From a virus (taxonomy: Duplodnaviria; Heunggongvirae; Uroviricota; Caudoviricetes): a stretch of DNA of 25,496 bases. Position 1 is the stretch's first letter. Each line of letters begins with the position of its first letter. A program made the translations under genes and the position numbers. Below are positions 1 to 25,496 of this stretch, piece by piece. Location: IMG/VR virus record IMGVR_UViG_2724679539_000001, positions 1 to 25,496 of that record; one strand, 5' to 3'. Below the pieces are notes generated by a model. It worked only from the letters and a program-made list of their open reading frames with translations. It had not been told where the DNA came from and ran no database searches.

Positions 1-458
1 TTTCTAACCTGTACGGTATGGTCACCGGGATGGCGGAAGATCTGCAGAGTCTGGTCGGTGGAACGGTGGTCCGGCGTAAGGTTTACGCCCGTTTTCTGGA
101 TGCGGTGAACTTCGTCAACGGAAACAGTGGCGCCGATCCGGAGCAGGAGGTGATCAGCCGCTGGCGCATTGAGCAGTGCAGCGAACTGAGCGCGGTGAGT
201 GCCTCTTTTGTACTGTCCACGCCGACGGAAACGGACGGTGCTGTTTTTCCGGGACGTATCATGCTGGCCAACACCTGCACCTGGACCTATCGCGGTGATG
301 AGTGCGGTTATCACGGTCCGGCAGTCGCGGATGAATATGACCAGCCAACGTCCGATATCACGAAGGATAAATGCAGCAAATGCCTGAGCGGTTGTAAGTT
401 CCGCAATAACGTCGGCAACTTTGGCGGCTTCCTTTCCATTAACAAACTTTCGCAGTAA
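1..458 (+). CDS. L: Tail tip protein L (lambda gpL-like), 5'-truncated by the window edge; reading frame begins at position 3
   Basis: Translation SNLYGMVTGMAEDLQSLVGG... to ...FLSINKLSQ matches the C-terminal ~150 aa of lambda L as recalled, including the Cys-rich region (CGYHG, CSKCLSGC). Gene order L-K-I-J follows. Confidence 0.88.
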   Translation, partial: SNLYGMVTGMAEDLQSLVGGTVVRRKVYARFLDAVNFVNGNSGADPEQEVISRWRIEQCSELSAVSASFVLSTPTETDGAVFPGRIMLANTCTWTYRGDECGYHGPAVADEYDQPTSDITKDKCSKCLSGCKFRNNVGNFGGFLSINKLSQ

Positions 459-463
459 ATCCC

Positions 464-1207
464 ATGACACAGACAGAATCAGCGATTCTGGCGCACGCCC
501 GGCGATGTGCGCCAGCGGAGTCGTGCGGCTTCGTGGTAAGCACGCCGGAGGGGGAAAGATATTTTCCCGGCGTGAATATTTCCGGTGAGCCGGAGGATTA
601 TTTCCGGATGGCTCCGGAGGACTGGCTGCAGGCAGAAATGCAGGGTGAGATTGTGGCGCTGGTCCACAGCCACCCCGGTGGTCTGCCCTGGCAGAGTGAG
701 GCTGACCGGCGGCTGCAGGTGCAGAGTGATTTGCCGTGGTGGCTGGTCTGCCGGGGGGCGATTCATAAGTTCCGCTGTGTGCCGCATCTCACCGGGCGGC
801 GCTTTGAGCACGGGGTGACGGACTGTTACACGCTGTTCCGGGATGCTTATCATCTGGCGGGGATTGAGATGCCGGATTTTCATCGCGGGGATGACTGGTG
901 GCGTCACGGTCAGAATCTCTATCTGGATAATCTGGAGGCCACAGGGCTGTATCAGGTGCCGTTGTCAGCGGCGCAGCCGGGCGATGTGCTGCTGTGCTGT
1001 TTTGGTTCATCGGTGCCGAATCATGCCGCCATTTACTGTGGTGACGGTGAGCTGCTGCACCATATTCCTGAACAACTGAGCAAACGAGAGAGGTACACCG
1101 ACAAATGGCAGCGACGCACACACTCCCTCTGGCGTCACCGGGCATGGCGCGCATCTGCCTTTACGGGGATTTACAACGATTTGGTCGCCGCATCGACCTT
1201 CGTGTGA
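464..1207 (+). CDS. K: Tail tip assembly protein K (lambda gpK-like; MPN/JAMM plus NlpC/P60 domains)
   Basis: 247-aa ORF with JAMM motif HSHPGGLPWQSEAD and an NlpC/P60-like Cys/His region (DCYTLFRDAYHLAG ... HAAIY). Overlaps I by 103 bp as in lambda. Classic lambda annotation starts at the internal ATG at 608 (199 aa). Confidence 0.88.
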   Translation: MTQTESAILAHARRCAPAESCGFVVSTPEGERYFPGVNISGEPEDYFRMAPEDWLQAEMQGEIVALVHSHPGGLPWQSEADRRLQVQSDLPWWLVCRGAIHKFRCVPHLTGRRFEHGVTDCYTLFRDAYHLAGIEMPDFHRGDDWWRHGQNLYLDNLEATGLYQVPLSAAQPGDVLLCCFGSSVPNHAAIYCGDGELLHHIPEQLSKRERYTDKWQRRTHSLWRHRAWRASAFTGIYNDLVAASTFV

Positions 1208-1776
1208 AAACGGGGGCTGAAGCCATCCGGGCACTGGCCACACAGCTCCCGGCGTTTCGTCAGAAACTGAGCGACGGCTGGTATCAGGTACGGATTGCCG
1301 GGCGGGACGTCAGCACGTCCGGGTTAACGGCGCAGTTACATGAGACTCTGCCTGATGGCGCTGTGATTCATATTGTTCCCAGAGTCGCCGGGGCCAAGTC
1401 AGGTGGCGTATTCCAGATTGTCCTGGGGGCTGCCGCCATTGCCGGATCATTCTTTACCGCCGGAGCCACCCTTGCAGCATGGGGGGCAGCCATTGGGGCC
1501 GGTGGTATGACCGGCATCCTGTTTTCTCTCGGTGCCAGTATGGTCCTCGGTGGTGTGGCGCAGATGCTGGCACCGAAAGCCAGAACTCCCCGTACACAGA
1601 CAACGGATAACGGTAAGCAGAACACCTATTTCTCCTCACTGGATAACATGGTTGCCCAGGGCAATGTTCTGCCTGTTCTGTACGGGGAAATGCGCGTGGG
1701 GTCACGCGTGGTTTCTCAGGAGATCAGCACGGCAGACGAAGGGGACGGTGGTCAGGTTGTGGTGATTGGTCGCTGA
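1105..1776 (+). CDS. I: Tail tip assembly protein I (lambda gpI-like)
   Basis: 223-aa ORF beginning MAATHTLPLASPGMARICLYGDLQRF, with a Gly/Ala-rich hydrophobic C-terminal half. Position between K and J and the 60-bp gap to J match my recollection of lambda. Confidence 0.88.
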   Translation: MAATHTLPLASPGMARICLYGDLQRFGRRIDLRVKTGAEAIRALATQLPAFRQKLSDGWYQVRIAGRDVSTSGLTAQLHETLPDGAVIHIVPRVAGAKSGGVFQIVLGAAAIAGSFFTAGATLAAWGAAIGAGGMTGILFSLGASMVLGGVAQMLAPKARTPRTQTTDNGKQNTYFSSLDNMVAQGNVLPVLYGEMRVGSRVVSQEISTADEGDGGQVVVIGR

Positions 1777-1794
1777 TGCAAAATGTTTTATGTG

Positions 1795-1816
1795 AAACCG
1801 CCTGCGGGCGGTTTTG
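1795..1816 (+). terminator. Stem-loop between I and J (AAACCGCC-tgcg-GGCGGTTT, then TGTCATTT)
   Basis: 8-bp inverted repeat with 4-nt loop and a T-rich tail in the I-J gap; could be an attenuator or RNA structure. Mirror copy at 23681-23702 on the minus strand. Confidence 0.35.
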
Positions 1817-1836
1817 TCATTTATGGAGCGTGAGGA

Positions 1837-4800
1837 ATGAGTAAAGGAAGCAGTAAGGGGCATACCCCGCGCGAAGCGAAGGACAACCTGAAGTCCACGC
1901 AGTTGCTGAGTGTGATCGATGCCATCAGCGAAGGGCCGGTTGAAGGTCCGGTGGATGGATTAAAAAGCGTGCTGCTGAACAGTACGCCGGTGCTGGACAC
2001 TGAGGGGAATACCAACATCTCCGGTGTCACGGTGGTGTTCCGTGCCGGTGAGCAGGAGCAGACACCGCCGGAGGGGTTTGAATCCTCCGGCTCCGAGACG
2101 GTGTTGGGTACGGAAGTGAAATACGACACGCCGATCACCCGCGCCATCACGTCGGCAAACATCGACCGACTGCGCTTTACCTTCGGTGTGCAGGCACTGG
2201 TGGAAACCACCTCAAAGGGGGACCGGAATCCGTCGGAAGTTCGCCTGCTGGTTCAGATACAGCGTAATGGTGGCTGGGTGACGGAAAAAGATATCACCAT
2301 TAAGGGCAAAACCACCTCGCAGTATCTGGCCTCGGTGGTGGTGGATAACCTGCCGCCGCGCCCGTTTAATATCCGGATGCGCAGAATGACGCCGGACAGC
2401 ACCACAGACCAGCTGCAGAACAAAACGCTCTGGTCGTCATACACCGAAATCATCGATGTGAAACAGTGCTACCCGAACACGGCACTGGTCGGCGTGCAGG
2501 TGGATTCGGAGCAGTTCGGCAGCCAGCAGGTGAGCCGTAATTATCATCTTCGCGGGCGCATTCTGCAGGTGCCGTCGAATTATAACCCGCAGACGCGGCA
2601 ATACAGCGGTATCTGGGACGGAACGTTTAAGCCAGCATACAGCAACAACATGGCCTGGTGTCTGTGGGATATGCTGACCCATCCGCGCTACGGCATGGGG
2701 AAACGTCTTGGTGCGGCGGATGTGGACAAATGGGCGCTGTATGTCATCGGCCAGTACTGCGACCAGTCAGTGCCGGACGGCTTTGGCGGCACGGAGCCGC
2801 GCATCACCTGTAATGCGTACCTGACCACACAGCGCAAGGCGTGGGACGTTCTCAGTGATTTCTGCTCGGCGATGCGCTGTATGCCGGTATGGAACGGGCA
2901 GACGCTGACGTTCGTGCAGGACCGACCGTCGGATAAGGCGTGGACCTATAACCGCAGTAATGTGGTGATGCCGGATGATGGCGCGCCGTTCCGCTACAGC
3001 TTCAGCGCCCTGAAAGACCGCCATAATGCCGTTGAGGTGAACTGGATTGACCCGAACAACGGCTGGGAGACGGCGACAGAGCTTGTTGAAGATACGCAGG
3101 CCATTGCCCGTTACGGTCGTAATGTTACGAAGATGGATGCCTTTGGCTGTACCAGCCGGGGGCAGGCACACCGCGCCGGGCTGTGGCTGATTAAAACGGA
3201 GCTGCTGGAGACGCAGACCGTGGATTTCAGCGTCGGCGCAGAAGGGCTTCGCCATGTACCGGGCGATGTTATTGAAATCTGCGATGATGACTATGCCGGT
3301 ATCAGCACCGGTGGTCGTGTGCTGGCGGTGAACAGCCAGACCCGGACGCTGACGCTCGACCGTGAAATCACGCTGCCATCCTCCGGTACCACGCTGATAA
3401 GCCTGGTTGACGGAAGTGGCAATCCGGTCAGCGTGGAGGTTCAGTCCGTCAACGACGGCGTGAAGGTAAAAGTGAGCCGTGTTCCTGAGGGTGTTGCTGA
3501 ATACAGCGTATGGGGGCTGAAGCTGCCGACGCTGCGCCAGCGCCTGTTCCGCTGCGTGAGTATCCGTGAGAACGACGACGGCACGTATGCCATCACCGCC
3601 GTGCAGCATGTGCCGGAAAAAGAGGCCATCGTGGATAACGGGGCGCACTTTGACGGCGAACAGAGTGGCACGGTGAATGGTGTCACGCCGCCAGCGGTGC
3701 AGCACCTGACCGCAGAAGTCACTGCAGACAGCGGGGAATATCAGGTGCTGGCGCGATGGGACACACCGAAGGTGGTGAAGGGCGTGAGCTTCCTGCTCCG
3801 TCTGACCGTAACAGCGGACGACGGCAGTGAGCGGCTGGTCAGCACGGCCCGGACGACGGAAACCACATACCGCTTCACGCAACTGGCGCTGGGGAACTAC
3901 AGGCTGACAGTCCGGGCGGTAAATGCGTGGGGGCAGCAGGGCGATGCGGCGTCGGTATCGTTCCGGATTGCCGCACCGGCAGCACCGTCGAGGATTGAGC
4001 TGACGCCGGGCTATTTTCAGATAACCGCCACGCCGCATCTTGCCATTTATGACCCGACGGTACAGTTTGAGTTCTGGTTCTCGGAAAAGCGGATTACCGA
4101 TATCAGGCAGGTTGAAACCACAGCCCGCTATCTTGGCACGGCGCTGTACTGGATAGCCGCCAGTATCAATATCAAACCGGGCCATGATTATTATTTTTAC
4201 ATCCGCAGTGTGAACACCGTTGGCAAATCGGCATTTGTGGAGGCTGTTGGCCAGCCGAGTGATGATGCATCCGGCTATCTGGATTTTTTCAAAGGAGAGA
4301 TAGGGAAAAGCCATCTGGCTCAGGAGCTGTGGACGCAGATTGATAACGGTCAGCTTGCGCCTGACCTGGCTGAAATCAGGACGTCCATTACGGATGTCAG
4401 CAATGAAATCACGCAGACCGTCAATAAGAAACTGGAAGACCAGAGTGCGGCAATTCAGCAGATACAGAAGGTTCAGGTTGATACAAATAATAACCTGAAC
4501 AGCATGTGGGCTGTGAAGCTGCAGCAGATGCAGGACGGACGCCTTTATATCGCGGGTATTGGTGCCGGTATTGAGAATACCCCTGACGGTATGCAGAGTC
4601 AGGTGCTGCTGGCGGCGGACAGGATTGCGATGATTAATCCTGCGAATGGCAACACAAAGCCGATGTTTGTTGGTCAGGGCGATCAGATATTTATGAATGA
4701 AGTGTTCCTGAAATATCTGACGGCTCCCACCATTACCAGCGGCGGTAATCCTCCGGCATTTTCCCTGACACCGGACGGGCGGCTGACGGCAAAAAATGCC

Positions 4801-5316
4801 GATATCAGCGGTAACGTGAATGCGAACTCCGGGACGCTCAACAACGTCACGATTAACGAGAACTGCCGGGTTCTGGGAAAACTGTCCGCGAACCAGATTG
4901 AAGGCGATCTCGTTAAAACAGTGGGCAAAGCTTTCCCCCGTGACTCCCGTGCACCGGAACGGTGGCCATCAGGGACCATTACCGTCAGGGTTTATGACGA
5001 TCAGCCGTTTGACCGGCAGATTGTTATTCCAGCGGTGGCTTTCAGCGGTGCCAGACATGAACGGGAGAATAGCGATACTTATTCGTCATGCCGCCTGATA
5101 GTGAAGAAAAACGGGGCTGAAATTTATAACCGAACGGCTCTGGATAATACTCTGATTTACACGGGTGTTATTGATATGCCTGCAGGCAGTGGCGTAATGA
5201 CACTGGAGTTTTCGGTATCAGCATGGTGGGTAAATGGCTGGTATCCCACAGCAAGTATCAGCGATTTGCTGGTTGTGGTGATGAAGAAAGCCACCGCAGG
5301 CATCAGTATCAGCTGA
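1837..5316 (+). CDS. J: Tail tip attachment / host specificity protein J (lambda gpJ-like)
   Basis: 1159-aa ORF starting [34 protein letters not shown], near-identical to the lambda J N-terminus as recalled. Preceded by GAGG RBS. Fibronectin-like central repeats and a C-terminal receptor-binding region. Confidence 0.95.
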
Positions 5317-5335
5317 ATTTTATAACCCCAATACG

Positions 5336-5359
5336 GGCGTCAGAAATGACGCCTTTTTT
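5336..5359 (+). terminator. Rho-independent terminator downstream of J
   Basis: GGCGTCA-gaaa-TGACGCC followed by TTTTTT. Mirror copy at 20138-20161 on the minus strand. Confidence 0.65.
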
Positions 5360-5383
5360 ATTGCAGAAAAGCGAGAGGTAATT

Positions 5384-5983
5384 ATGCGTAAATTATGTGC
5401 TGTTATTCTGTCCGCAGTAGTCTGGCTGGTTGCCGCTGGTACGCCAGCGAGCGCAGCAGAGCATCAGTCCACACTAAGCGCCGGGTATCTTCAGGCCCAT
5501 ACTGATATGCCAGGCAGTGATGACCTGAAGGGCATTAACGTGAAATACCGTTATGAATTTACGGACACGCTGGGGCTGGTGACGTCATTCAGTTATGCCA
5601 ATGCCAAAGATGAGCAAAAAACGCATTACAGCGATACCCGCTGGCATGAAGATTCCGTGCGTAACCGCTGGTTCAGCATGATGGCGGGGCCATCTGTACG
5701 CGTGAATGAATGGTTCAGTGCTTATGCGATGGCAGGTGTGGCTTACAGCCGTGTTTCGACGTTCTCCGGGGATTATCTCCGCGTAACTGACAACAAGGGG
5801 AAAACGCACGATGTGCTGACCGGAAGTGATGACGATCGCCACAGCAACACGTCTCTGGCGTGGGGAGCTGGCGTGCAGTTTAACCCGACCGAATCCGTGG
5901 CCATTGATATTGCTTATGAAGGCTCCGGCAGTGGCGACTGGCGCACTGACGGTTTCATCGTGGGTGTCGGTTATAAGTTCTGA
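5384..5983 (+). CDS. lom: Lom-like outer membrane protein (Ail/Lom/PagC beta-barrel family)
   Basis: 199-aa ORF with signal peptide MRKLCAVILSAVVWLVAAGTPASA and a C-terminal aromatic residue (…VGYKF) typical of OMP barrels. Closely resembles lambda Lom; sits directly after J as in lambda. Confidence 0.9.
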   Translation: MRKLCAVILSAVVWLVAAGTPASAAEHQSTLSAGYLQAHTDMPGSDDLKGINVKYRYEFTDTLGLVTSFSYANAKDEQKTHYSDTRWHEDSVRNRWFSMMAGPSVRVNEWFSAYAMAGVAYSRVSTFSGDYLRVTDNKGKTHDVLTGSDDDRHSNTSLAWGAGVQFNPTESVAIDIAYEGSGSGDWRTDGFIVGVGYKF

Positions 5984-6009
5984 TTAGCCAGGTAACACAG
6001 TGTTATGAC

Positions 6010-6036
6010 AGCCCGCCGGTTCAGGCGGGCTTTTTT
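6010..6036 (+). terminator. Rho-independent terminator downstream of lom
   Basis: AGCCCGCC-ggttca-GGCGGGCT followed by TTTTTT. Mirror copy at 19461-19487 on the minus strand. Confidence 0.7.
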
Positions 6037-6047
6037 GTGGAGTGGAT

Positions 6048-8429
6048 ATGGCAGCAGTAAAAATCTCAGGTGTGCTGAAAGATGGTGCGGGAAAACCAAT
6101 ACAGAACTGCACTATTCAACTGAAGGCAAAGCGTAACAGCACCACGGTACTGGTGAACACGGTGGCCTCTGAAAATCCGGATGAAGCCGGGCGTTACAGC
6201 ATGGATGTTGAGTATGGTCAGTACAGCGTCACCCTGCTGGTTGAAGGTTTTCCGCCTTCACATGCCGGGACCATTACCGTCTATGAAGGTTCCAGACCAG
6301 GTACGCTGAATGATTTTCTCGGTGCCATGACGGAAGATGATGTCATGCCGGAGGCATTGCGTCGTTTTGAGGAAATGGTGGAAGAAGCGGCACGCAACGC
6401 TGAAGCCGCCTCTCAGAGCGCAGCGGCGGCAAAGAAATCCGAAACTGCAGCGGCATCATCGAAGAACGCGGCGAAAACCTCAGAAACGAATGCAGCTAAC
6501 AGCGCACAGGCGGCAGCGGCCTCGCAGACTGCATCGGCAAACTCCGCAACAGCAGCTAAAAAATCAGAAACCAACGCGAAAAATAGCGAGACAGCCGCAA
6601 AGACGAGCGAAACCAACGCAAAGTCCAGCCAGACGGCAGCGAAGACCAGCGAAACGAATGCCAAAGCCAGTGAAACTGCGGCAAAAAACAGCCAGGTTGC
6701 AGCAGCCCAAAGCGAGAGCGCGGCAGCCGGTTCTGCGACTTCAGCAGCTGGATCAGCAACTGCTACGGCTAACAGCCAGAAAGCTGCGAAGACGAGTGAA
6801 ACTAACGCAAAGTCCAGCCAGACGGCAGCGAAGACCAGCGAAACGAATGCCAAAGCCAGTGAAACTGCGGCGAAAAGCAGTCAGGATGCAGCGGCTCAAA
6901 GCGAGAGTGCCGCAGCCAGTTCTGCAAGCGCGGCGGCTGCTTCTGCCACTGCATCAGCCAACAGTCAAAAAGCAGCAAAAACCAGTGAAACCAATGCAAA
7001 GGCGAGCGAGACTGCGGCGGCTAACTCGGCGAAAGCATCCGCAGCAAGCCAGACGGCTGCAAAAGCAAGTGAAGACGCAGCCAGAGAGTATGCAAGCCAG
7101 GCTGCGGAGCCGTATAAACAAGTTTTGCAGCCGCTTCCCGATGTGTGGATACCATTTAACGATTCGCTGGATATGATTACGGGCTTTTCGCCGTCATATA
7201 AAAAGATTGTTATTGGTGATGATGAAATAACGATGCCTGGCGATAAGGTTGTAAAGTTTAAACGCGCATCAAAAGCAACTTACATTAATAAATCTGGTGT
7301 GCTGACAGAGGCTGCCATTGACGAGCCACGGTTTGAACGTGATGGCCTGCTTATTGAGGGGCAAAGAACTAATCTTCTGCTTAATTCAACAAATCCATCT
7401 AAATGGAATAAGTCAGGCAATCTGGAACTCACAGAAATATCCACGGATTCATTTAATTTTACTTATGGGAGATTTACTGTAAAAGATACTCTTATTGATC
7501 AGACAAGTGCGATTAATATCGCAACGGTTTCTGGCAGTAAAGGATTTGATGTCACAGGTGATGAAAAATATGTGACCATTTCATGCCGTGTCAGAAGTGA
7601 TGTTGAAAATATAAGGTGTCGTTTAAGATTTGAACATCATGATGGTTCTACTTACACTTTTTTGGGAGATGCTTACCTCAATTTATCAACACTTGTAATT
7701 GATAAGACTGGTGGTGCAGCAAATCGTATTATTGCAAAAGCTGTAAAAGATGAGGCTACTGGTTGGATTTTCTATCAGGCTACAATTAATGCACTAGATA
7801 CAGAGAGCATGATTGGTGCGATGGTTCAATATGCTCCAGTAAAAGGTTCAGGCACAGCATCTGGAGACTATCTGGATATCGCAACTCCACAAGTGGAAGG
7901 TGGATCAAGTGCTTCGTCATTTATTGTAACTGATATAACTGCAAGCACTCGCGCAAGCGATATGGTGACAGTCCCAATCAAGAATAACCTTTATAATCTT
8001 CCTTTTACGGTTCTTTGTGAGGTACATAAGAACTGGTATAAAACGCCAAATGCAGCACCGCGTGTTTTTGATACCGGCGGTCATCAAACCGGAGCGGCTA
8101 TTATTCTTGGCTTCGGTCGTTCAACAGATTACGACGGATTTCCTTATTGTGATATAGGTTTGGCTAACAGACGGGTAAACGAAAACGCATCGCTTGAAAA
8201 AATGGTTATGGGGATGCGTGTAAAGTCAGATCAGTCTACGTGCTCAGTAAGTAACGGGCGTATATCCAGCGAAACAAAAACCACATGGTCTTATATTCAG
8301 AACACCGCAATTATCCGTATTGGAGGCCAGACTACAGCCGGGTTACGTCATTTGTTTGGACACATCAGGAATTTCAGAATATGGCATAAAGAATTAACTG
8401 ATGCGCAAATGGGGGAGAGTATTAAATGA
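6048..8429 (+). CDS. stf: Side tail fibre protein with Stf-like N-terminal domain, Ala/Ser/Thr-rich repeat shaft and divergent AT-rich C-terminal domain
   Basis: N-terminus MAAVKISGVLKDGAGKPIQNCTIQLKAKRNSTTVLVNTVASENPDEAGRYSMDVEYGQYSV matches lambda Stf as recalled. The ORF track starts at GTG 6042; ATG at 6048 with GGAG 5 nt upstream is the more likely start. Confidence 0.85.
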   Translation: MAAVKISGVLKDGAGKPIQNCTIQLKAKRNSTTVLVNTVASENPDEAGRYSMDVEYGQYSVTLLVEGFPPSHAGTITVYEGSRPGTLNDFLGAMTEDDVMPEALRRFEEMVEEAARNAEAASQSAAAAKKSETAAASSKNAAKTSETNAANSAQAAAASQTASANSATAAKKSETNAKNSETAAKTSETNAKSSQTAAKTSETNAKASETAAKNSQVAAAQSESAAAGSATSAAGSATATANSQKAAKTSETNAKSSQTAAKTSETNAKASETAAKSSQDAAAQSESAAASSASAAAASATASANSQKAAKTSETNAKASETAAANSAKASAASQTAAKASEDAAREYASQAAEPYKQVLQPLPDVWIPFNDSLDMITGFSPSYKKIVIGDDEITMPGDKVVKFKRASKATYINKSGVLTEAAIDEPRFERDGLLIEGQRTNLLLNSTNPSKWNKSGNLELTEISTDSFNFTYGRFTVKDTLIDQTSAINIATVSGSKGFDVTGDEKYVTISCRVRSDVENIRCRLRFEHHDGSTYTFLGDAYLNLSTLVIDKTGGAANRIIAKAVKDEATGWIFYQATINALDTESMIGAMVQYAPVKGSGTASGDYLDIATPQVEGGSSASSFIVTDITASTRASDMVTVPIKNNLYNLPFTVLCEVHKNWYKTPNAAPRVFDTGGHQTGAAIILGFGRSTDYDGFPYCDIGLANRRVNENASLEKMVMGMRVKSDQSTCSVSNGRISSETKTTWSYIQNTAIIRIGGQTTAGLRHLFGHIRNFRIWHKELTDAQMGESIK
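6596..6929 (+). repeat. Internal tandem direct repeat inside stf (period 189 bp = 63 aa; two near-identical units with a 63-bp perfect core)
   Basis: 6621-6683 is identical to 6810-6872 (aagtccagccagacggcagcgaagaccagcgaaacgaatgccaaagccagtgaaactgcggc); flanks are ~85% identical. Encodes repeating KTSETNAK(A/S)S(E/Q)TAAK motifs. Confidence 0.85.
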
Positions 8430-8707
8430 AAGATTTAACACTCAAATTTGCAGACAGGGCCGACTTTTCGGCCTTTATGGAGAGTGCTGGCTATTATGAT
8501 GACGAGTCGATGCAGGATGATATTCTTATTGACGTGATAGGTAACGTGTACAAAGAAACCGGAGAACTTACTGAAGATGGCGAGCCGGTATGTGTTAAGG
8601 AAGACGGATATTTTGTAAACGTGCGCATCATTAATGATGTGAAAACACCGTCAATATTCGATGAATACGTGGTTGCTGTTGAGCATCAACTTCGTGGCTG
8701 GATGTGA
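8426..8707 (+). CDS. Hypothetical protein (93 aa), acidic, translationally coupled to stf (ATGA overlap)
   Basis: ORF with ATG overlapping the stf stop; AT-rich codon usage like its neighbours; no recognisable motif. Confidence 0.55.
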   Translation: MKDLTLKFADRADFSAFMESAGYYDDESMQDDILIDVIGNVYKETGELTEDGEPVCVKEDGYFVNVRIINDVKTPSIFDEYVVAVEHQLRGWM

Positions 8708-8716
8708 GGAAGAATA

Positions 8717-9757
8717 ATGGCTACATCGACAGTAATTCCTGATGACATCAAAACGCTAAAATCCGATGTTAGCAAATTAAAAAACGATCAAGGAAGCTAC
8801 GTAACAAAATCATATGTAGACAGCAAAAATGAAACCGTTAATGACTGGTCTGCTGCATGGTATCAGCAGGTACTGCCAACTAGCGGAGCTATATTTGGGC
8901 GAAAACTTCGCTCAACTCACAGGACGGCAGGTGTTGAGGATGCGTATTGCGAACTATACCTTAAAAAATGGATAGACAGCCCAGGGAACGCAATGGCGCG
9001 CCTTAACCTGAACGATAACGGTGAAAATATTTGCTGGGATTTTACCAACCTTTACGGCGGAACAATGATCTTCCCTGGTACTTCAGGCTATCTGAAAATG
9101 GGGAACTGTCTCATGTCGTATAGTGTGCGGGGAAGTAACGCGCTTATTAAGTTTGATTACACCGACACATTACAGATCAAATATGCTAATCATGGGTCAA
9201 CCATGACATTAACCACACAGGGATCCGCTCACGCTGGCGTAACAACTAGACTATGGGGTAATTCTAGCCGTCCGGTTGTTTATGAAGTTGGCGTAGATGA
9301 GGCTCTGTATATGTTCTACGCACAGAAAACTACCAGCAATACCTACGAATTAACGGTTAACGGCGCGTGCAATGCAAGTGCATTTAATCAAGGCTCTGAC
9401 CGGGATCTGAAAGACAATATTCAGGTGATCGATAATGCAACCGACCGCATTCGTAAAATGAACGGCTATACATACACGCTTAAAGAAAACGGTATGCCTT
9501 ACGCTGGTGTTATTGCACAAGAAACCCTGGAAGCCATCCCCGAAGCCGTAGGGTCTATGATGAAATATCCAGACGGCGGGAGTGGATTAGATGGAGAAGA
9601 AGGTGAACGGTATTACACAGTAGATTATTCTGGTGTTACTGGCTTGCTTGTTCAGGTAGCCAGAGAGTCGGACGACAGAATAACAGCACTGGAAGAAGAA
9701 AACGCAGAATTAAGACAAAGATTATCTGCAATTGAGGCGGCGCTTGCGTCTAAATAA
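8717..9757 (+). CDS. Tail fibre/tailspike-like protein with C-terminal peptidase S74 intramolecular chaperone (autoproteolytic) domain
   Basis: 346-aa ORF with GAGGA RBS. C-terminal region SDRDLKDNIQVIDNATDRIRKMNGYTYTLKENG...AGVIAQE followed by a coiled-coil tail (ITALEEENAELRQRLSAIEAALASK) fits the S74 chaperone signature with a Ser-x4-Lys dyad. Confidence 0.7.
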   Translation: MATSTVIPDDIKTLKSDVSKLKNDQGSYVTKSYVDSKNETVNDWSAAWYQQVLPTSGAIFGRKLRSTHRTAGVEDAYCELYLKKWIDSPGNAMARLNLNDNGENICWDFTNLYGGTMIFPGTSGYLKMGNCLMSYSVRGSNALIKFDYTDTLQIKYANHGSTMTLTTQGSAHAGVTTRLWGNSSRPVVYEVGVDEALYMFYAQKTTSNTYELTVNGACNASAFNQGSDRDLKDNIQVIDNATDRIRKMNGYTYTLKENGMPYAGVIAQETLEAIPEAVGSMMKYPDGGSGLDGEEGERYYTVDYSGVTGLLVQVARESDDRITALEEENAELRQRLSAIEAALASK

Positions 9758-10119: not shown

Positions 10120-10135
10120 ATTCTATTTTCTGCTA

Positions 10136-12291: not shown

Positions 12292-12312
12292 ACTGTCATC
12301 TCCAGCTTATAA

Positions 12313-15739: not shown

Positions 15740-16780
15740 TTATTTAGACGCAAGCGCCGCCTCAATTGCAGATAATCTTTGTCTTAATTCTGCGTTTTCT
15801 TCTTCCAGTGCTGTTATTCTGTCGTCCGACTCTCTGGCTACCTGAACAAGCAAGCCAGTAACACCAGAATAATCTACTGTGTAATACCGTTCACCTTCTT
15901 CTCCATCTAATCCACTCCCGCCGTCTGGATATTTCATCATAGACCCTACGGCTTCGGGGATGGCTTCCAGGGTTTCTTGTGCAATAACACCAGCGTAAGG
16001 CATACCGTTTTCTTTAAGCGTGTATGTATAGCCGTTCATTTTACGAATGCGGTCGGTTGCATTATCGATCACCTGAATATTGTCTTTCAGATCCCGGTCA
16101 GAGCCTTGATTAAATGCACTTGCATTGCACGCGCCGTTAACCGTTAATTCGTAGGTATTGCTGGTAGTTTTCTGTGCGTAGAACATATACAGAGCCTCAT
16201 CTACGCCAACTTCATAAACAACCGGACGGCTAGAATTACCCCATAGTCTAGTTGTTACGCCAGCGTGAGCGGATCCCTGTGTGGTTAATGTCATGGTTGA
16301 CCCATGATTAGCATATTTGATCTGTAATGTGTCGGTGTAATCAAACTTAATAAGCGCGTTACTTCCCCGCACACTATACGACATGAGACAGTTCCCCATT
16401 TTCAGATAGCCTGAAGTACCAGGGAAGATCATTGTTCCGCCGTAAAGGTTGGTAAAATCCCAGCAAATATTTTCACCGTTATCGTTCAGGTTAAGGCGCG
16501 CCATTGCGTTCCCTGGGCTGTCTATCCATTTTTTAAGGTATAGTTCGCAATACGCATCCTCAACACCTGCCGTCCTGTGAGTTGAGCGAAGTTTTCGCCC
16601 AAATATAGCTCCGCTAGTTGGCAGTACCTGCTGATACCATGCAGCAGACCAGTCATTAACGGTTTCATTTTTGCTGTCTACATATGATTTTGTTACGTAG
16701 CTTCCTTGATCGTTTTTTAATTTGCTAACATCGGATTTTAGCGTTTTGATGTCATCAGGAATTACTGTCGATGTAGCCAT
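15740..16780 (-). CDS. Tail fibre-like protein with S74 intramolecular chaperone domain (mirror copy)
   Basis: Protein identical to the 8717-9757 ORF. Confidence 0.7.
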   Translation of the reverse strand: MATSTVIPDDIKTLKSDVSKLKNDQGSYVTKSYVDSKNETVNDWSAAWYQQVLPTSGAIFGRKLRSTHRTAGVEDAYCELYLKKWIDSPGNAMARLNLNDNGENICWDFTNLYGGTMIFPGTSGYLKMGNCLMSYSVRGSNALIKFDYTDTLQIKYANHGSTMTLTTQGSAHAGVTTRLWGNSSRPVVYEVGVDEALYMFYAQKTTSNTYELTVNGACNASAFNQGSDRDLKDNIQVIDNATDRIRKMNGYTYTLKENGMPYAGVIAQETLEAIPEAVGSMMKYPDGGSGLDGEEGERYYTVDYSGVTGLLVQVARESDDRITALEEENAELRQRLSAIEAALASK

Positions 16781-16789: not shown

Positions 16790-17071
16790 TCACATCCAGC
16801 CACGAAGTTGATGCTCAACAGCAACCACGTATTCATCGAATATTGACGGTGTTTTCACATCATTAATGATGCGCACGTTTACAAAATATCCGTCTTCCTT
16901 AACACATACCGGCTCGCCATCTTCAGTAAGTTCTCCGGTTTCTTTGTACACGTTACCTATCACGTCAATAAGAATATCATCCTGCATCGACTCGTCATCA
17001 TAATAGCCAGCACTCTCCATAAAGGCCGAAAAGTCGGCCCTGTCTGCAAATTTGAGTGTTAAATCTTTCAT
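16790..17071 (-). CDS. Hypothetical protein, 93 aa (mirror copy)
   Basis: Protein identical to the 8426-8707 ORF. Confidence 0.55.
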   Translation of the reverse strand: MKDLTLKFADRADFSAFMESAGYYDDESMQDDILIDVIGNVYKETGELTEDGEPVCVKEDGYFVNVRIINDVKTPSIFDEYVVAVEHQLRGWM

Positions 17072-19449
17072 TTAATACTCTCCCCCATTTGCGCATCAGT
17101 TAATTCTTTATGCCATATTCTGAAATTCCTGATGTGTCCAAACAAATGACGTAACCCGGCTGTAGTCTGGCCTCCAATACGGATAATTGCGGTGTTCTGA
17201 ATATAAGACCATGTGGTTTTTGTTTCGCTGGATATACGCCCGTTACTTACTGAGCACGTAGACTGATCTGACTTTACACGCATCCCCATAACCATTTTTT
17301 CAAGCGATGCGTTTTCGTTTACCCGTCTGTTAGCCAAACCTATATCACAATAAGGAAATCCGTCGTAATCTGTTGAACGACCGAAGCCAAGAATAATAGC
17401 CGCTCCGGTTTGATGACCGCCGGTATCAAAAACACGCGGTGCTGCATTTGGCGTTTTATACCAGTTCTTATGTACCTCACAAAGAACCGTAAAAGGAAGA
17501 TTATAAAGGTTATTCTTGATTGGGACTGTCACCATATCGCTTGCGCGAGTGCTTGCAGTTATATCAGTTACAATAAATGACGAAGCACTTGATCCACCTT
17601 CCACTTGTGGAGTTGCGATATCCAGATAGTCTCCAGATGCTGTGCCTGAACCTTTTACTGGAGCATATTGAACCATCGCACCAATCATGCTCTCTGTATC
17701 TAGTGCATTAATTGTAGCCTGATAGAAAATCCAACCAGTAGCCTCATCTTTTACAGCTTTTGCAATAATACGATTTGCTGCACCACCAGTCTTATCAATT
17801 ACAAGTGTTGATAAATTGAGGTAAGCATCTCCCAAAAAAGTGTAAGTAGAACCATCATGATGTTCAAATCTTAAACGACACCTTATATTTTCAACATCAC
17901 TTCTGACACGGCATGAAATGGTCACATATTTTTCATCACCTGTGACATCAAATCCTTTACTGCCAGAAACCGTTGCGATATTAATCGCACTTGTCTGATC
18001 AATAAGAGTATCTTTTACAGTAAATCTCCCATAAGTAAAATTAAATGAATCCGTGGATATTTCTGTGAGTTCCAGATTGCCTGACTTATTCCATTTAGAT
18101 GGATTTGTTGAATTAAGCAGAAGATTAGTTCTTTGCCCCTCAATAAGCAGGCCATCACGTTCAAACCGTGGCTCGTCAATGGCAGCCTCTGTCAGCACAC
18201 CAGATTTATTAATGTAAGTTGCTTTTGATGCGCGTTTAAACTTTACAACCTTATCGCCAGGCATCGTTATTTCATCATCACCAATAACAATCTTTTTATA
18301 TGACGGCGAAAAGCCCGTAATCATATCCAGCGAATCGTTAAATGGTATCCACACATCGGGAAGCGGCTGCAAAACTTGTTTATACGGCTCCGCAGCCTGG
18401 CTTGCATACTCTCTGGCTGCGTCTTCACTTGCTTTTGCAGCCGTCTGGCTTGCTGCGGATGCTTTCGCCGAGTTAGCCGCCGCAGTCTCGCTCGCCTTTG
18501 CATTGGTTTCACTGGTTTTTGCTGCTTTTTGACTGTTGGCTGATGCAGTGGCAGAAGCAGCCGCCGCGCTTGCAGAACTGGCTGCGGCACTCTCGCTTTG
18601 AGCCGCTGCATCCTGACTGCTTTTCGCCGCAGTTTCACTGGCTTTGGCATTCGTTTCGCTGGTCTTCGCTGCCGTCTGGCTGGACTTTGCGTTAGTTTCA
18701 CTCGTCTTCGCAGCTTTCTGGCTGTTAGCCGTAGCAGTTGCTGATCCAGCTGCTGAAGTCGCAGAACCGGCTGCCGCGCTCTCGCTTTGGGCTGCTGCAA
18801 CCTGGCTGTTTTTTGCCGCAGTTTCACTGGCTTTGGCATTCGTTTCGCTGGTCTTCGCTGCCGTCTGGCTGGACTTTGCGTTGGTTTCGCTCGTCTTTGC
18901 GGCTGTCTCGCTATTTTTCGCGTTGGTTTCTGATTTTTTAGCTGCTGTTGCGGAGTTTGCCGATGCAGTCTGCGAGGCCGCTGCCGCCTGTGCGCTGTTA
19001 GCTGCATTCGTTTCTGAGGTTTTCGCCGCGTTCTTCGATGATGCCGCTGCAGTTTCGGATTTCTTTGCCGCCGCTGCGCTCTGAGAGGCGGCTTCAGCGT
19101 TGCGTGCCGCTTCTTCCACCATTTCCTCAAAACGACGCAATGCCTCCGGCATGACATCATCTTCCGTCATGGCACCGAGAAAATCATTCAGCGTACCTGG
19201 TCTGGAACCTTCATAGACGGTAATGGTCCCGGCATGTGAAGGCGGAAAACCTTCAACCAGCAGGGTGACGCTGTACTGACCATACTCAACATCCATGCTG
19301 TAACGCCCGGCTTCATCCGGATTTTCAGAGGCCACCGTGTTCACCAGTACCGTGGTGCTGTTACGCTTTGCCTTCAGTTGAATAGTGCAGTTCTGTATTG
19401 GTTTTCCCGCACCATCTTTCAGCACACCTGAGATTTTTACTGCTGCCAT
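17068..19449 (-). CDS. stf: Stf-like side tail fibre protein (mirror copy)
   Basis: Protein identical to the 6048-8429 ORF. Confidence 0.85.
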   Translation of the reverse strand: MAAVKISGVLKDGAGKPIQNCTIQLKAKRNSTTVLVNTVASENPDEAGRYSMDVEYGQYSVTLLVEGFPPSHAGTITVYEGSRPGTLNDFLGAMTEDDVMPEALRRFEEMVEEAARNAEAASQSAAAAKKSETAAASSKNAAKTSETNAANSAQAAAASQTASANSATAAKKSETNAKNSETAAKTSETNAKSSQTAAKTSETNAKASETAAKNSQVAAAQSESAAAGSATSAAGSATATANSQKAAKTSETNAKSSQTAAKTSETNAKASETAAKSSQDAAAQSESAAASSASAAAASATASANSQKAAKTSETNAKASETAAANSAKASAASQTAAKASEDAAREYASQAAEPYKQVLQPLPDVWIPFNDSLDMITGFSPSYKKIVIGDDEITMPGDKVVKFKRASKATYINKSGVLTEAAIDEPRFERDGLLIEGQRTNLLLNSTNPSKWNKSGNLELTEISTDSFNFTYGRFTVKDTLIDQTSAINIATVSGSKGFDVTGDEKYVTISCRVRSDVENIRCRLRFEHHDGSTYTFLGDAYLNLSTLVIDKTGGAANRIIAKAVKDEATGWIFYQATINALDTESMIGAMVQYAPVKGSGTASGDYLDIATPQVEGGSSASSFIVTDITASTRASDMVTVPIKNNLYNLPFTVLCEVHKNWYKTPNAAPRVFDTGGHQTGAAIILGFGRSTDYDGFPYCDIGLANRRVNENASLEKMVMGMRVKSDQSTCSVSNGRISSETKTTWSYIQNTAIIRIGGQTTAGLRHLFGHIRNFRIWHKELTDAQMGESIK
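18568..18901 (-). repeat. Internal 189-bp tandem repeat inside stf (mirror copy)
   Basis: Mirror of 6596-6929. Confidence 0.85.
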
Positions 19450-19513: not shown

Positions 19514-20113
19514 TCAGAACTTATAACCGACACCCACGATGAAACCGTCAGTGCGCCAGTCGCCACTGCCGGAGCCTTCATAAGCAATATCAATGGCCAC
19601 GGATTCGGTCGGGTTAAACTGCACGCCAGCTCCCCACGCCAGAGACGTGTTGCTGTGGCGATCGTCATCACTTCCGGTCAGCACATCGTGCGTTTTCCCC
19701 TTGTTGTCAGTTACGCGGAGATAATCCCCGGAGAACGTCGAAACACGGCTGTAAGCCACACCTGCCATCGCATAAGCACTGAACCATTCATTCACGCGTA
19801 CAGATGGCCCCGCCATCATGCTGAACCAGCGGTTACGCACGGAATCTTCATGCCAGCGGGTATCGCTGTAATGCGTTTTTTGCTCATCTTTGGCATTGGC
19901 ATAACTGAATGACGTCACCAGCCCCAGCGTGTCCGTAAATTCATAACGGTATTTCACGTTAATGCCCTTCAGGTCATCACTGCCTGGCATATCAGTATGG
20001 GCCTGAAGATACCCGGCGCTTAGTGTGGACTGATGCTCTGCTGCGCTCGCTGGCGTACCAGCGGCAACCAGCCAGACTACTGCGGACAGAATAACAGCAC
20101 ATAATTTACGCAT
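19514..20113 (-). CDS. lom: Lom-like outer membrane protein (mirror copy)
   Basis: Protein identical to the 5384-5983 ORF. Confidence 0.9.
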   Translation of the reverse strand: MRKLCAVILSAVVWLVAAGTPASAAEHQSTLSAGYLQAHTDMPGSDDLKGINVKYRYEFTDTLGLVTSFSYANAKDEQKTHYSDTRWHEDSVRNRWFSMMAGPSVRVNEWFSAYAMAGVAYSRVSTFSGDYLRVTDNKGKTHDVLTGSDDDRHSNTSLAWGAGVQFNPTESVAIDIAYEGSGSGDWRTDGFIVGVGYKF

Positions 20114-20180: not shown

Positions 20181-23100
20181 TCAGCTGATACTGATGCCTG
20201 CGGTGGCTTTCTTCATCACCACAACCAGCAAATCGCTGATACTTGCTGTGGGATACCAGCCATTTACCCACCATGCTGATACCGAAAACTCCAGTGTCAT
20301 TACGCCACTGCCTGCAGGCATATCAATAACACCCGTGTAAATCAGAGTATTATCCAGAGCCGTTCGGTTATAAATTTCAGCCCCGTTTTTCTTCACTATC
20401 AGGCGGCATGACGAATAAGTATCGCTATTCTCCCGTTCATGTCTGGCACCGCTGAAAGCCACCGCTGGAATAACAATCTGCCGGTCAAACGGCTGATCGT
20501 CATAAACCCTGACGGTAATGGTCCCTGATGGCCACCGTTCCGGTGCACGGGAGTCACGGGGGAAAGCTTTGCCCACTGTTTTAACGAGATCGCCTTCAAT
20601 CTGGTTCGCGGACAGTTTTCCCAGAACCCGGCAGTTCTCGTTAATCGTGACGTTGTTGAGCGTCCCGGAGTTCGCATTCACGTTACCGCTGATATCGGCA
20701 TTTTTTGCCGTCAGCCGCCCGTCCGGTGTCAGGGAAAATGCCGGAGGATTACCGCCGCTGGTAATGGTGGGAGCCGTCAGATATTTCAGGAACACTTCAT
20801 TCATAAATATCTGATCGCCCTGACCAACAAACATCGGCTTTGTGTTGCCATTCGCAGGATTAATCATCGCAATCCTGTCCGCCGCCAGCAGCACCTGACT
20901 CTGCATACCGTCAGGGGTATTCTCAATACCGGCACCAATACCCGCGATATAAAGGCGTCCGTCCTGCATCTGCTGCAGCTTCACAGCCCACATGCTGTTC
21001 AGGTTATTATTTGTATCAACCTGAACCTTCTGTATCTGCTGAATTGCCGCACTCTGGTCTTCCAGTTTCTTATTGACGGTCTGCGTGATTTCATTGCTGA
21101 CATCCGTAATGGACGTCCTGATTTCAGCCAGGTCAGGCGCAAGCTGACCGTTATCAATCTGCGTCCACAGCTCCTGAGCCAGATGGCTTTTCCCTATCTC
21201 TCCTTTGAAAAAATCCAGATAGCCGGATGCATCATCACTCGGCTGGCCAACAGCCTCCACAAATGCCGATTTGCCAACGGTGTTCACACTGCGGATGTAA
21301 AAATAATAATCATGGCCCGGTTTGATATTGATACTGGCGGCTATCCAGTACAGCGCCGTGCCAAGATAGCGGGCTGTGGTTTCAACCTGCCTGATATCGG
21401 TAATCCGCTTTTCCGAGAACCAGAACTCAAACTGTACCGTCGGGTCATAAATGGCAAGATGCGGCGTGGCGGTTATCTGAAAATAGCCCGGCGTCAGCTC
21501 AATCCTCGACGGTGCTGCCGGTGCGGCAATCCGGAACGATACCGACGCCGCATCGCCCTGCTGCCCCCACGCATTTACCGCCCGGACTGTCAGCCTGTAG
21601 TTCCCCAGCGCCAGTTGCGTGAAGCGGTATGTGGTTTCCGTCGTCCGGGCCGTGCTGACCAGCCGCTCACTGCCGTCGTCCGCTGTTACGGTCAGACGGA
21701 GCAGGAAGCTCACGCCCTTCACCACCTTCGGTGTGTCCCATCGCGCCAGCACCTGATATTCCCCGCTGTCTGCAGTGACTTCTGCGGTCAGGTGCTGCAC
21801 CGCTGGCGGCGTGACACCATTCACCGTGCCACTCTGTTCGCCGTCAAAGTGCGCCCCGTTATCCACGATGGCCTCTTTTTCCGGCACATGCTGCACGGCG
21901 GTGATGGCATACGTGCCGTCGTCGTTCTCACGGATACTCACGCAGCGGAACAGGCGCTGGCGCAGCGTCGGCAGCTTCAGCCCCCATACGCTGTATTCAG
22001 CAACACCCTCAGGAACACGGCTCACTTTTACCTTCACGCCGTCGTTGACGGACTGAACCTCCACGCTGACCGGATTGCCACTTCCGTCAACCAGGCTTAT
22101 CAGCGTGGTACCGGAGGATGGCAGCGTGATTTCACGGTCGAGCGTCAGCGTCCGGGTCTGGCTGTTCACCGCCAGCACACGACCACCGGTGCTGATACCG
22201 GCATAGTCATCATCGCAGATTTCAATAACATCGCCCGGTACATGGCGAAGCCCTTCTGCGCCGACGCTGAAATCCACGGTCTGCGTCTCCAGCAGCTCCG
22301 TTTTAATCAGCCACAGCCCGGCGCGGTGTGCCTGCCCCCGGCTGGTACAGCCAAAGGCATCCATCTTCGTAACATTACGACCGTAACGGGCAATGGCCTG
22401 CGTATCTTCAACAAGCTCTGTCGCCGTCTCCCAGCCGTTGTTCGGGTCAATCCAGTTCACCTCAACGGCATTATGGCGGTCTTTCAGGGCGCTGAAGCTG
22501 TAGCGGAACGGCGCGCCATCATCCGGCATCACCACATTACTGCGGTTATAGGTCCACGCCTTATCCGACGGTCGGTCCTGCACGAACGTCAGCGTCTGCC
22601 CGTTCCATACCGGCATACAGCGCATCGCCGAGCAGAAATCACTGAGAACGTCCCACGCCTTGCGCTGTGTGGTCAGGTACGCATTACAGGTGATGCGCGG
22701 CTCCGTGCCGCCAAAGCCGTCCGGCACTGACTGGTCGCAGTACTGGCCGATGACATACAGCGCCCATTTGTCCACATCCGCCGCACCAAGACGTTTCCCC
22801 ATGCCGTAGCGCGGATGGGTCAGCATATCCCACAGACACCAGGCCATGTTGTTGCTGTATGCTGGCTTAAACGTTCCGTCCCAGATACCGCTGTATTGCC
22901 GCGTCTGCGGGTTATAATTCGACGGCACCTGCAGAATGCGCCCGCGAAGATGATAATTACGGCTCACCTGCTGGCTGCCGAACTGCTCCGAATCCACCTG
23001 CACGCCGACCAGTGCCGTGTTCGGGTAGCACTGTTTCACATCGATGATTTCGGTGTATGACGACCAGAGCGTTTTGTTCTGCAGCTGGTCTGTGGTGCTG

Positions 23101-23660
23101 TCCGGCGTCATTCTGCGCATCCGGATATTAAACGGGCGCGGCGGCAGGTTATCCACCACCACCGAGGCCAGATACTGCGAGGTGGTTTTGCCCTTAATGG
23201 TGATATCTTTTTCCGTCACCCAGCCACCATTACGCTGTATCTGAACCAGCAGGCGAACTTCCGACGGATTCCGGTCCCCCTTTGAGGTGGTTTCCACCAG
23301 TGCCTGCACACCGAAGGTAAAGCGCAGTCGGTCGATGTTTGCCGACGTGATGGCGCGGGTGATCGGCGTGTCGTATTTCACTTCCGTACCCAACACCGTC
23401 TCGGAGCCGGAGGATTCAAACCCCTCCGGCGGTGTCTGCTCCTGCTCACCGGCACGGAACACCACCGTGACACCGGAGATGTTGGTATTCCCCTCAGTGT
23501 CCAGCACCGGCGTACTGTTCAGCAGCACGCTTTTTAATCCATCCACCGGACCTTCAACCGGCCCTTCGCTGATGGCATCGATCACACTCAGCAACTGCGT
23601 GGACTTCAGGTTGTCCTTCGCTTCGCGCGGGGTATGCCCCTTACTGCTTCCTTTACTCAT
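20181..23660 (-). CDS. J: Host specificity protein J (mirror copy)
   Basis: Protein identical to the 1837-5316 ORF. Confidence 0.95.
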
Positions 23661-23720
23661 TCCTCACGCTCCATAAATGACAAAACCGCCCGCAGGCGGT
23701 TTCACATAAAACATTTTGCA

Positions 23721-24392
23721 TCAGCGACCAATCACCACAACCTGACCACCGTCCCCTTCGTCTGCCGTGCTGATCTCCTGAGAAACCACGCGTGACCCCA
23801 CGCGCATTTCCCCGTACAGAACAGGCAGAACATTGCCCTGGGCAACCATGTTATCCAGTGAGGAGAAATAGGTGTTCTGCTTACCGTTATCCGTTGTCTG
23901 TGTACGGGGAGTTCTGGCTTTCGGTGCCAGCATCTGCGCCACACCACCGAGGACCATACTGGCACCGAGAGAAAACAGGATGCCGGTCATACCACCGGCC
24001 CCAATGGCTGCCCCCCATGCTGCAAGGGTGGCTCCGGCGGTAAAGAATGATCCGGCAATGGCGGCAGCCCCCAGGACAATCTGGAATACGCCACCTGACT
24101 TGGCCCCGGCGACTCTGGGAACAATATGAATCACAGCGCCATCAGGCAGAGTCTCATGTAACTGCGCCGTTAACCCGGACGTGCTGACGTCCCGCCCGGC
24201 AATCCGTACCTGATACCAGCCGTCGCTCAGTTTCTGACGAAACGCCGGGAGCTGTGTGGCCAGTGCCCGGATGGCTTCAGCCCCCGTTTTCACACGAAGG
24301 TCGATGCGGCGACCAAATCGTTGTAAATCCCCGTAAAGGCAGATGCGCGCCATGCCCGGTGACGCCAGAGGGAGTGTGTGCGTCGCTGCCAT
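23721..24392 (-). CDS. I: Tail tip assembly protein I (mirror copy)
   Basis: Protein identical to the 1105-1776 ORF. Confidence 0.88.
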   Translation of the reverse strand: MAATHTLPLASPGMARICLYGDLQRFGRRIDLRVKTGAEAIRALATQLPAFRQKLSDGWYQVRIAGRDVSTSGLTAQLHETLPDGAVIHIVPRVAGAKSGGVFQIVLGAAAIAGSFFTAGATLAAWGAAIGAGGMTGILFSLGASMVLGGVAQMLAPKARTPRTQTTDNGKQNTYFSSLDNMVAQGNVLPVLYGEMRVGSRVVSQEISTADEGDGGQVVVIGR

Positions 24393-25033
24393 TTGTCGGT
24401 GTACCTCTCTCGTTTGCTCAGTTGTTCAGGAATATGGTGCAGCAGCTCACCGTCACCACAGTAAATGGCGGCATGATTCGGCACCGATGAACCAAAACAG
24501 CACAGCAGCACATCGCCCGGCTGCGCCGCTGACAACGGCACCTGATACAGCCCTGTGGCCTCCAGATTATCCAGATAGAGATTCTGACCGTGACGCCACC
24601 AGTCATCCCCGCGATGAAAATCCGGCATCTCAATCCCCGCCAGATGATAAGCATCCCGGAACAGCGTGTAACAGTCCGTCACCCCGTGCTCAAAGCGCCG
24701 CCCGGTGAGATGCGGCACACAGCGGAACTTATGAATCGCCCCCCGGCAGACCAGCCACCACGGCAAATCACTCTGCACCTGCAGCCGCCGGTCAGCCTCA
24801 CTCTGCCAGGGCAGACCACCGGGGTGGCTGTGGACCAGCGCCACAATCTCACCCTGCATTTCTGCCTGCAGCCAGTCCTCCGGAGCCATCCGGAAATAAT
24901 CCTCCGGCTCACCGGAAATATTCACGCCGGGAAAATATCTTTCCCCCTCCGGCGTGCTTACCACGAAGCCGCACGACTCCGCTGGCGCACATCGCCGGGC
25001 GTGCGCCAGAATCGCTGATTCTGTCTGTGTCAT
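24290..25033 (-). CDS. K: Tail tip assembly protein K (mirror copy)
   Basis: Protein identical to the 464-1207 ORF. Confidence 0.88.
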   Translation of the reverse strand: MTQTESAILAHARRCAPAESCGFVVSTPEGERYFPGVNISGEPEDYFRMAPEDWLQAEMQGEIVALVHSHPGGLPWQSEADRRLQVQSDLPWWLVCRGAIHKFRCVPHLTGRRFEHGVTDCYTLFRDAYHLAGIEMPDFHRGDDWWRHGQNLYLDNLEATGLYQVPLSAAQPGDVLLCCFGSSVPNHAAIYCGDGELLHHIPEQLSKRERYTDKWQRRTHSLWRHRAWRASAFTGIYNDLVAASTFV

Positions 25034-25038
25034 GGGAT

Positions 25039-25496
25039 TTACTGCGAAAGTTTGTTAATGGAAAGGAAGCCGCCAAAGTTGCCGACGTTATTGCGGAACT
25101 TACAACCGCTCAGGCATTTGCTGCATTTATCCTTCGTGATATCGGACGTTGGCTGGTCATATTCATCCGCGACTGCCGGACCGTGATAACCGCACTCATC
25201 ACCGCGATAGGTCCAGGTGCAGGTGTTGGCCAGCATGATACGTCCCGGAAAAACAGCACCGTCCGTTTCCGTCGGCGTGGACAGTACAAAAGAGGCACTC
25301 ACCGCGCTCAGTTCGCTGCACTGCTCAATGCGCCAGCGGCTGATCACCTCCTGCTCCGGATCGGCGCCACTGTTTCCGTTGACGAAGTTCACCGCATCCA
25401 GAAAACGGGCGTAAACCTTACGCCGGACCACCGTTCCACCGACCAGACTCTGCAGATCTTCCGCCATCCCGGTGACCATAATGTATAAGTGTGTAA
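25039..25496 (-). CDS. L: Tail tip protein L, 5'-truncated by the window edge (mirror copy); the last 17 nt diverge from the left-end copy
   Basis: 25039-25479 encodes a protein identical to 18-458. The codons in 25480-25494 would read THLYI instead of the lambda-like SNLYG. Confidence 0.8.
   Translation of the reverse strand, partial: THLYIMVTGMAEDLQSLVGGTVVRRKVYARFLDAVNFVNGNSGADPEQEVISRWRIEQCSELSAVSASFVLSTPTETDGAVFPGRIMLANTCTWTYRGDECGYHGPAVADEYDQPTSDITKDKCSKCLSGCKFRNNVGNFGGFLSINKLSQ

Follow-up and report, generated by a model that had tools for sequence, protein, structure and literature searches.

A viral contig that reads the same on both strands raises the question of whether it records a genuine arrangement of a genome or the way in which an assembler passed over a telomere. 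The window considered here, meaning the whole stretch of 25,496 nucleotides held in IMG/VR as IMGVR_UViG_2724679539_000001, is the entire contig JZWQ02000009.1 (25,496 bp) of the Illumina draft assembly GCA_000968905.2 from Escherichia fergusonii GTA-EF02; it carries lambda-type tail genes and the sopBA partition genes of an element related to phage N15 (Ravinvirus N15), whose prophage is a linear plasmid with the protelomerase TelN. The most probable account (roughly 0.88) is that E. fergusonii GTA-EF02 carries an N15-like linear plasmid-prophage of about 46 kb and that the contig shows its telR-proximal 12.7 kb folded back on itself.

Comparison of the window with its own reverse complement gave no mismatch at all from base 17 to base 25480. 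The 14 mismatching positions of the self-comparison all lie in bases 1-16 and 25481-25496, seven differences at each end, and the two arms of 12,732 nt meet without a spacer between 12748 and 12749, exactly where the initial annotation, made from the letters of the DNA, had placed the axis. Its description of a perfect palindrome of about 25.5 kb thus holds for bases 17-25480 and fails for the terminal 16 nt at each end; the self-alignment that it had proposed puts the loss of identity at 16 nt from either contig end, and many mismatches between the arms were not seen. The list of open reading frames is mirror-symmetric as well, with ten complete genes per arm encoding identical proteins. An eleventh, the tail gene L, runs off the end of the contig, and the non-mirrored 16 nt change its first five codons from one arm to the other, so that the earlier count of eleven genes recurring with identical proteins is right for the ten complete ones but not for L. 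A perfect mirror of this kind cannot arise by chance. The palindrome fills the whole contig with its axis at the exact centre, and both arms end at the same point without unique flanks.

The axis falls on a known type of site. In N15 (NC_001901) a 56-bp inverted repeat at 24775-24830 is annotated as a “cut site for prophage formation,” with the cut at 24802/3, between gene 28 (ParA-like) and gene 29 (protelomerase). When the two are aligned, the axis of the window coincides with this cut, the 22-bp centre is shared in full, and on the sop side 31 of the innermost 33 bases are those of N15 telRL, in agreement with the initial annotation, which had set the axis inside a protelomerase-type palindrome; 12748/12749 is the predicted point at which TelN would cut and rejoin. 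The non-coding stretch leading to the axis (12292-12748) has a G+C content of 28% vs. 50% in the coding part. The motif AGAACAYW occurs 14 times in the window, against 3.0 expected, and ten of the copies lie within 170 bp of the axis: five per arm at 12581-12722 (mirror 12775-12916), all directed toward the telomere. Repeats of this type also flank the site in N15, with copies at -108, +31 and +94 of the cut, and they are probably accessory, tos-type binding repeats of the protelomerase.

What is joined at the axis differs from the site in its ordinary uncut form. PhiR46_1 (PV340565.1) is a 46,290-bp linear record in which the first 22 bp are annotated “telL site” and the last 22 bp “telR site”; bases 10100-12748 of the window (2,649 bp) are 100% identical to its right end, the one annotated as telR. 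Rebuilt from both PhiR46_1 ends, telRL of this lineage is a perfect palindrome over 27 bp per side, compared with 11 bp per side in N15 and 12,732 in the window. An uncut telRL is present on IMGVR_UViG_3300045988_145448, where sequence 99.0% identical to the window arm runs up to the axis and is followed directly by sequence 99.0% identical to the telL/telN side of PhiR46_1. A search of IMG/VR with both junctions matched the R-L junction once, on this contig, and returned no match for the R-R junction. Natural duplex continues from the axis into telN, whereas the window joins R to R, so that its mirrored continuation does not belong to the phage or circular form. These comparisons identify the junction, unlike the telRL of N15, as telRR, two R arms set head-to-head exactly at the cut site. 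The initial annotation had likened it to a telLL-type intermediate, a label that has to be exchanged, since the sopA-proximal end is telR both in the PhiR46_1 annotation and in N15 usage (PMC12624138). The IMG/VR contig with the R-L junction has its axis at position 6560 of the reverse-complemented locus; as the only one in IMG/VR with an exact uncut telRL of this lineage, it can usefully serve as the reference sequence of the phage or circular form.

The element to which the arm belongs is well represented among sequenced relatives. A lambda-type tail module followed by sopBA beside the telR end is found in the same order in N15, PhiR46_1 and the plasmid pEC21Z151-46K. N15 shares the succession of tail genes, sopBA and tel site, but its sopBA DNA (genes 27-28) is 73% identical and its perfect core is shorter, 11+11 vs. 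27+27 in the native telRL of the window's lineage. PhiR46_1 has the same gene order throughout the arm; it differs in its tail module, which is 95.8% identical (window 1-7303), and in being deposited, correctly, as linear, extending 11 nt beyond the axis and lacking a mirrored arm. Its first gene, beside telL, encodes all four domains of the TelK/ResT protelomerases (TelK_N, muzzle, catalytic and stirrup), and its second protein (1,331 aa), with Toprim and origin-binding matches, is a RepA-type primase at the position of N15 RepA. The element is mosaic, with a sopBA-telomere module 100% identical to that of PhiR46_1 vs. 95.8% for the tail module. The best whole-arm identity to other records was 97% in the phage, plasmid and E. 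coli collections; the SopA protein is identical to WP_001555445.1, annotated SopA, and the exact J protein was located on just three public contigs, including JZWQ02000009.1 itself. Gene content and these identities place the element among the N15-like telomere phages, with PhiR46_1 and several plasmid records as near-identical members. A wider likeness is to the hairpin-ended replicons of Borrelia (ResT) and Agrobacterium (TelA), in which, as described in PMC12624138, the hairpin is replicated into an inverted-repeat junction that a tyrosine-recombinase-like resolvase cuts and reseals; these replicons differ in their hosts, in their unrelated telomere sequences and in having no phage genes.

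Single-copy forms of near-identical elements are found as contigs or records of 45-47 kb, with telN and sopA at opposite ends, and they stop 23-313 nt before the axis. ABYWDZ010000037.1 has 6 nucleotide differences in 12,435 relative to the arm and stops 313 nt before the axis; ABQIWM010000035.1 stops 23 nt before it; pEC21Z151-46K (NZ_CP101200.1, 46,173 bp, 97.1% identical) and an E. fergusonii plasmid record of 47,010 bp both stop 47 nt before it. To stop just short of the axis is what would be expected from a physical end. The agreement between ABQIWM010000035.1 and the arm is almost perfect as far as about position 7150; past it the two part company within stf.

The same fold-back also occurs in at least ten other public records or contigs. 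NZ_CP101203.1 (14,498 bp), deposited as a “circular complete plasmid,” is a 100% perfect palindrome on the same axis, and comes from the same strain as the complete pEC21Z151-46K. CP088430.1 (91,525 bp, “circular”) is an inverted dimer of the whole element, with axes at 22,682 and 68,112. The chromosome record of strain YDC107 (NZ_CP025707.1, bases 1-32,633) starts with a 32.6-kb palindrome at the same site, one arm of which is full of frameshifts. A contig with a SPAdes-type name, ERZ24774947 NODE_130_length_90054 (90,054 bp), has the axis at 45,027.5, its exact centre, and contigs of 52,287, 53,885 and 58,730 bp correspond to a genome of about 46.3 kb extended by a fold-back of 5.9, 7.6 and 12.9 kb, respectively; the longest of these fold-backs (12,856 nt) is almost equal in length to the arm of the window. 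These four belong to the longest public contigs listed for the exact SopA protein (10 places, representing 8 distinct contigs), of which seven continue over the axis into the mirror and one has telN beside sopA; the sample is biased toward fold-backs, which are enriched among contigs that exceed the 46-kb genome in length. All of these fold-back records are mirrored on the same telR axis as the window, and NZ_CP101203.1 and the 90-kb contig are likewise whole contigs centred on it; they differ in the length of their arms (5.9 to 45 kb), and those from long reads have one error-rich arm at 97.7-99.7% identity, whereas the window contig is error-free. In YDC107 the fold-back is fused to the chromosomal prophage genes cspI, ydfO and gnsB, which suggests a chimeric assembly. 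Head-to-head sopA pairs on the same axis were also seen inside two very long isolate contigs, CASDMQ010000024.1 (2.72 Mb) and CASDMG010000043.1 (293 kb), which suggests a phage-plasmid fold-back chimerically joined to the chromosome. A literature search for an explicit account of palindromic contigs from N15-like phages gave only general statements, on inverted-repeat screening in Borrelia and on fold-back artefacts of long reads; those who assemble Borrelia genomes check contigs for long terminal inverted repeats as a matter of routine (PMC6945570).

Replication of N15 gives ntelRR and ntelLL junctions or a circular head-to-head dimer, which TelN cuts and reseals into the hairpins ntelR and ntelL (PMC12624138). 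On the fold-back reading, the stable molecule in the cell would carry a single copy of the arm (L-K-I-J-lom-stf, then sopBA and the subtelomeric spacer), its two strands covalently joined at the axis through the action of a TelN/TelK-family protelomerase. A small number of the sequenced fragments would have crossed the axis with R-side sequence on both sides, derived either from unresolved replicated telRR junctions or from a polymerase copying round the hairpin during library preparation; a graph assembler would then have traversed the junction and re-used the edge of the arm in reverse until both arms met a stop point in gene L. The molecule in GTA-EF02 would accordingly be linear and hairpin-ended, with its protelomerase on another contig. 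The stop point is plausibly the boundary of an inter-prophage repeat, because the stretch of gene L that adjoins it is 100% identical in many E. coli prophages; the median is three such places in each genome. At distances from the axis greater than one read or insert, the arm is the same graph path used again, and it therefore adds no independent evidence for a duplex palindrome of 25 kb. Hairpin read-through and an unresolved replicated junction, the alternatives named in the initial annotation, were well chosen, as the axis is the N15-type cut site and the arm end is telR of PhiR46_1; the contig sequence alone separates neither from the other.

Several points weigh against this reading. It was drawn from assembled sequence. 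The contig belongs to version 2 of the assembly; the details that are available (an isolate from beef trim, Nextera XT, MiSeq 2x300, SPAdes 3.5; PMC4832150) refer to version 1. The protelomerase and repA lie outside the window; they are present in the closest full-length relatives and beside sopA in the uncut form. A terminal hairpin that is tagmented would receive one adaptor type only and should form no clusters. By this reasoning the crossing fragments would more readily come from real duplex telRR intermediates than from reads passing directly round the hairpin, and the junction itself may be more biology than artefact. Finally, the odd 16 nt at the right end break the mirror.

The alternative that survives best is that head-to-head dimers or telRR junctions are substantial and long-lived in this strain, for example through slow resolution or an impaired TelN. 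A short-read assembly did cross the axis, so that duplex R-R fragments were probably in the library, as judged from tagmentation chemistry, and N15 replication passes through telRR and telLL junctions and circular head-to-head dimers (PMC12624138). Against it, the same fold-back is seen across many unrelated assemblies from the element family, and no peculiarity of the strain is needed; a few crossing reads suffice for a graph assembler; and long perfect palindromes are substrates of SbcCD in enterobacteria, according to literature cited in PMC12624138. We consider this alternative unlikely, and the stronger proposition that telRR dimers or a palindromic derivative persist at high level in GTA-EF02, for example with impaired telomere resolution, quite improbable. 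Were the latter true, an enterobacterial host with SbcCD would in nature be tolerating a perfect palindrome of giant size.

Still harder to sustain is a genuine, stably inherited inverted duplication of 25.5 kb, be it a mini-replicon or chromosomal. The deposited sequence is, after all, a palindrome, and one public chromosome record, that of YDC107, holds a similar structure; in that record, however, the palindrome stands at the start and one of its arms is frameshift-rich, as is typical of a long-read misassembly. In the window neither a replication gene nor an origin was found on the contig, which is the whole of the window and carries tail genes and sopBA but nothing else; the arms share one stopping base and have no unique flank; and the absence of any divergence over 12.7 kb is as expected for the two strands of one duplex. 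The action of SbcCD on long palindromes (literature cited in PMC12624138) argues against stable inheritance too.

A random inverted chimera from library preparation or amplification, with no telomere involved, has very little to commend it: fold-back chimeras are a known technical artefact, but this axis lies to the base on the telO centre, where independent records of the element end, and it recurs in many independent assemblies. The idea that the window is centred on an ordinary uncut telRL, as in the phage or circular form, its symmetry merely that of the site, finds a resemblance in the 56-bp core, which is like N15 telRL, and is ruled out for practical purposes by the rebuilt telRL and the uncut IMG/VR contig, in which perfect symmetry (11 bp per side in N15, 27 bp in this lineage) soon gives way to telN, as opposed to 12,732 bp per side here.

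The fold-back reading thus treats the contig as a known element in a common assembly outcome; it is not a new genome arrangement and implies no new biology. As it stands, the contig doubles 12.7 kb of a phage-plasmid and adds eleven duplicated genes to counts, and it could pass for an inverted-repeat element or for an “ITR-complete” (inverted terminal repeat) viral genome. Several records of the family are deposited as “circular complete plasmids” or within a chromosome record, yet are fold-backs or inverted dimers. Put to use, a palindrome that spans a whole contig about a tel site offers an inexpensive way to detect hairpin-ended replicons by computation, with the telomere located to the base; here it flags an N15-like telomere phage in an E. 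fergusonii food isolate.

The features of one arm, with their mirrored counterparts, are collected in the table, together with the target site and the two non-mirrored ends.

Table. Features of the window, listed by position in the left arm; the non-mirrored contig ends are given last.
Feature	Position	Strand	Mirror copy	Basis or remark
Tail tip protein L, C-terminal 151 aa, truncated by contig end	3-458	+	25039-25494 (-)	Pfam Phage_tail_L, E=9e-70, profile 54-206 of 206
Tail tip protein K	464-1207	+	24290-25033 (-)	Pfam Prok-JAB and NLPC_P60
Tail assembly protein I	1204-1776	+	23721-24293 (-)	Pfam Lambda_tail_I
Host-specificity tail tip protein J, 1159 aa	1837-5316	+	20181-23660 (-)	Six GpJ domain families
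Lom outer-membrane protein	5384-5983	+	19514-20113 (-)	Pfam Ail_Lom, E=2e-127
Side tail fibre Stf	6048-8429	+	17068-19449 (-)	Pfam phage_tail_N; gene call
93-aa protein	8426-8707	+	16790-17071 (-)	No Pfam match
346-aa tail fibre domain protein, C-terminal S74 chaperone domain	8717-9757	+	15740-16780 (-)	Pfam Peptidase_S74
95-aa protein	9800-10087	+	15410-15697 (-)	No Pfam match; gene call
SopB/ParB partition protein	10136-11125	-	14372-15361 (+)	Pfam SoPB_HTH
SopA/ParA partition ATPase	11122-12291	-	13206-14375 (+)	Pfam AAA_31 and CbiA
AT-rich subtelomeric spacer, 28% GC	12292-12720	+	12777-13205	Five same-orientation AGAACAYW repeats, last at 12715-12722
Protelomerase target core, 56 bp, perfect palindrome here	12721-12776	.		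Aligned to N15 telRL repeat_region and annotated cut site
22-bp telO centre CCATTATACGCGCGTATAATGG	12738-12759	.		Annotated telR/telL site in PV340565.1
Non-mirrored left end	1-16	+		True extension of gene L; same 16 nt in three related loci including NZ_CP025707.1
Non-mirrored right end ATGTATAAGTGTGTAA	25481-25496	+		Probably contig-end noise

The two contig ends differ in character. The 16 nt on the right are in frame with gene L, where they encode THLYI in place of SNLYG, and match the expected mirror at 9 of 16 positions; the contig stays exactly symmetric in length. An exact search of IMG/VR and of 185,579 species-representative genomes gave no match to them, and none of the 4,377 E. coli records that hold this stretch of gene L aligns through them. 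The possibility that they are a natural gene L allele of another prophage was rejected, no counterpart having been found in IMG/VR, the species genomes or E. coli. Compared by eye with the Nextera mosaic end, they share an 8-mer only. We suspect noise or an error at the contig end.

Two minor observations concern the smaller features of the arm. The 93-aa and 95-aa open reading frames keep their position between stf, the S74-domain fibre gene and sopB in all relatives examined. Just upstream of sopA, nested inverted repeats occupy 12312-12372: one pair, ACTTTGCTT / AAGCAAAGT, is perfect over 9 nt, and a second pair of 16 nt has 75% complementarity; these repeats could be an operator or the partition site of the sop operon.

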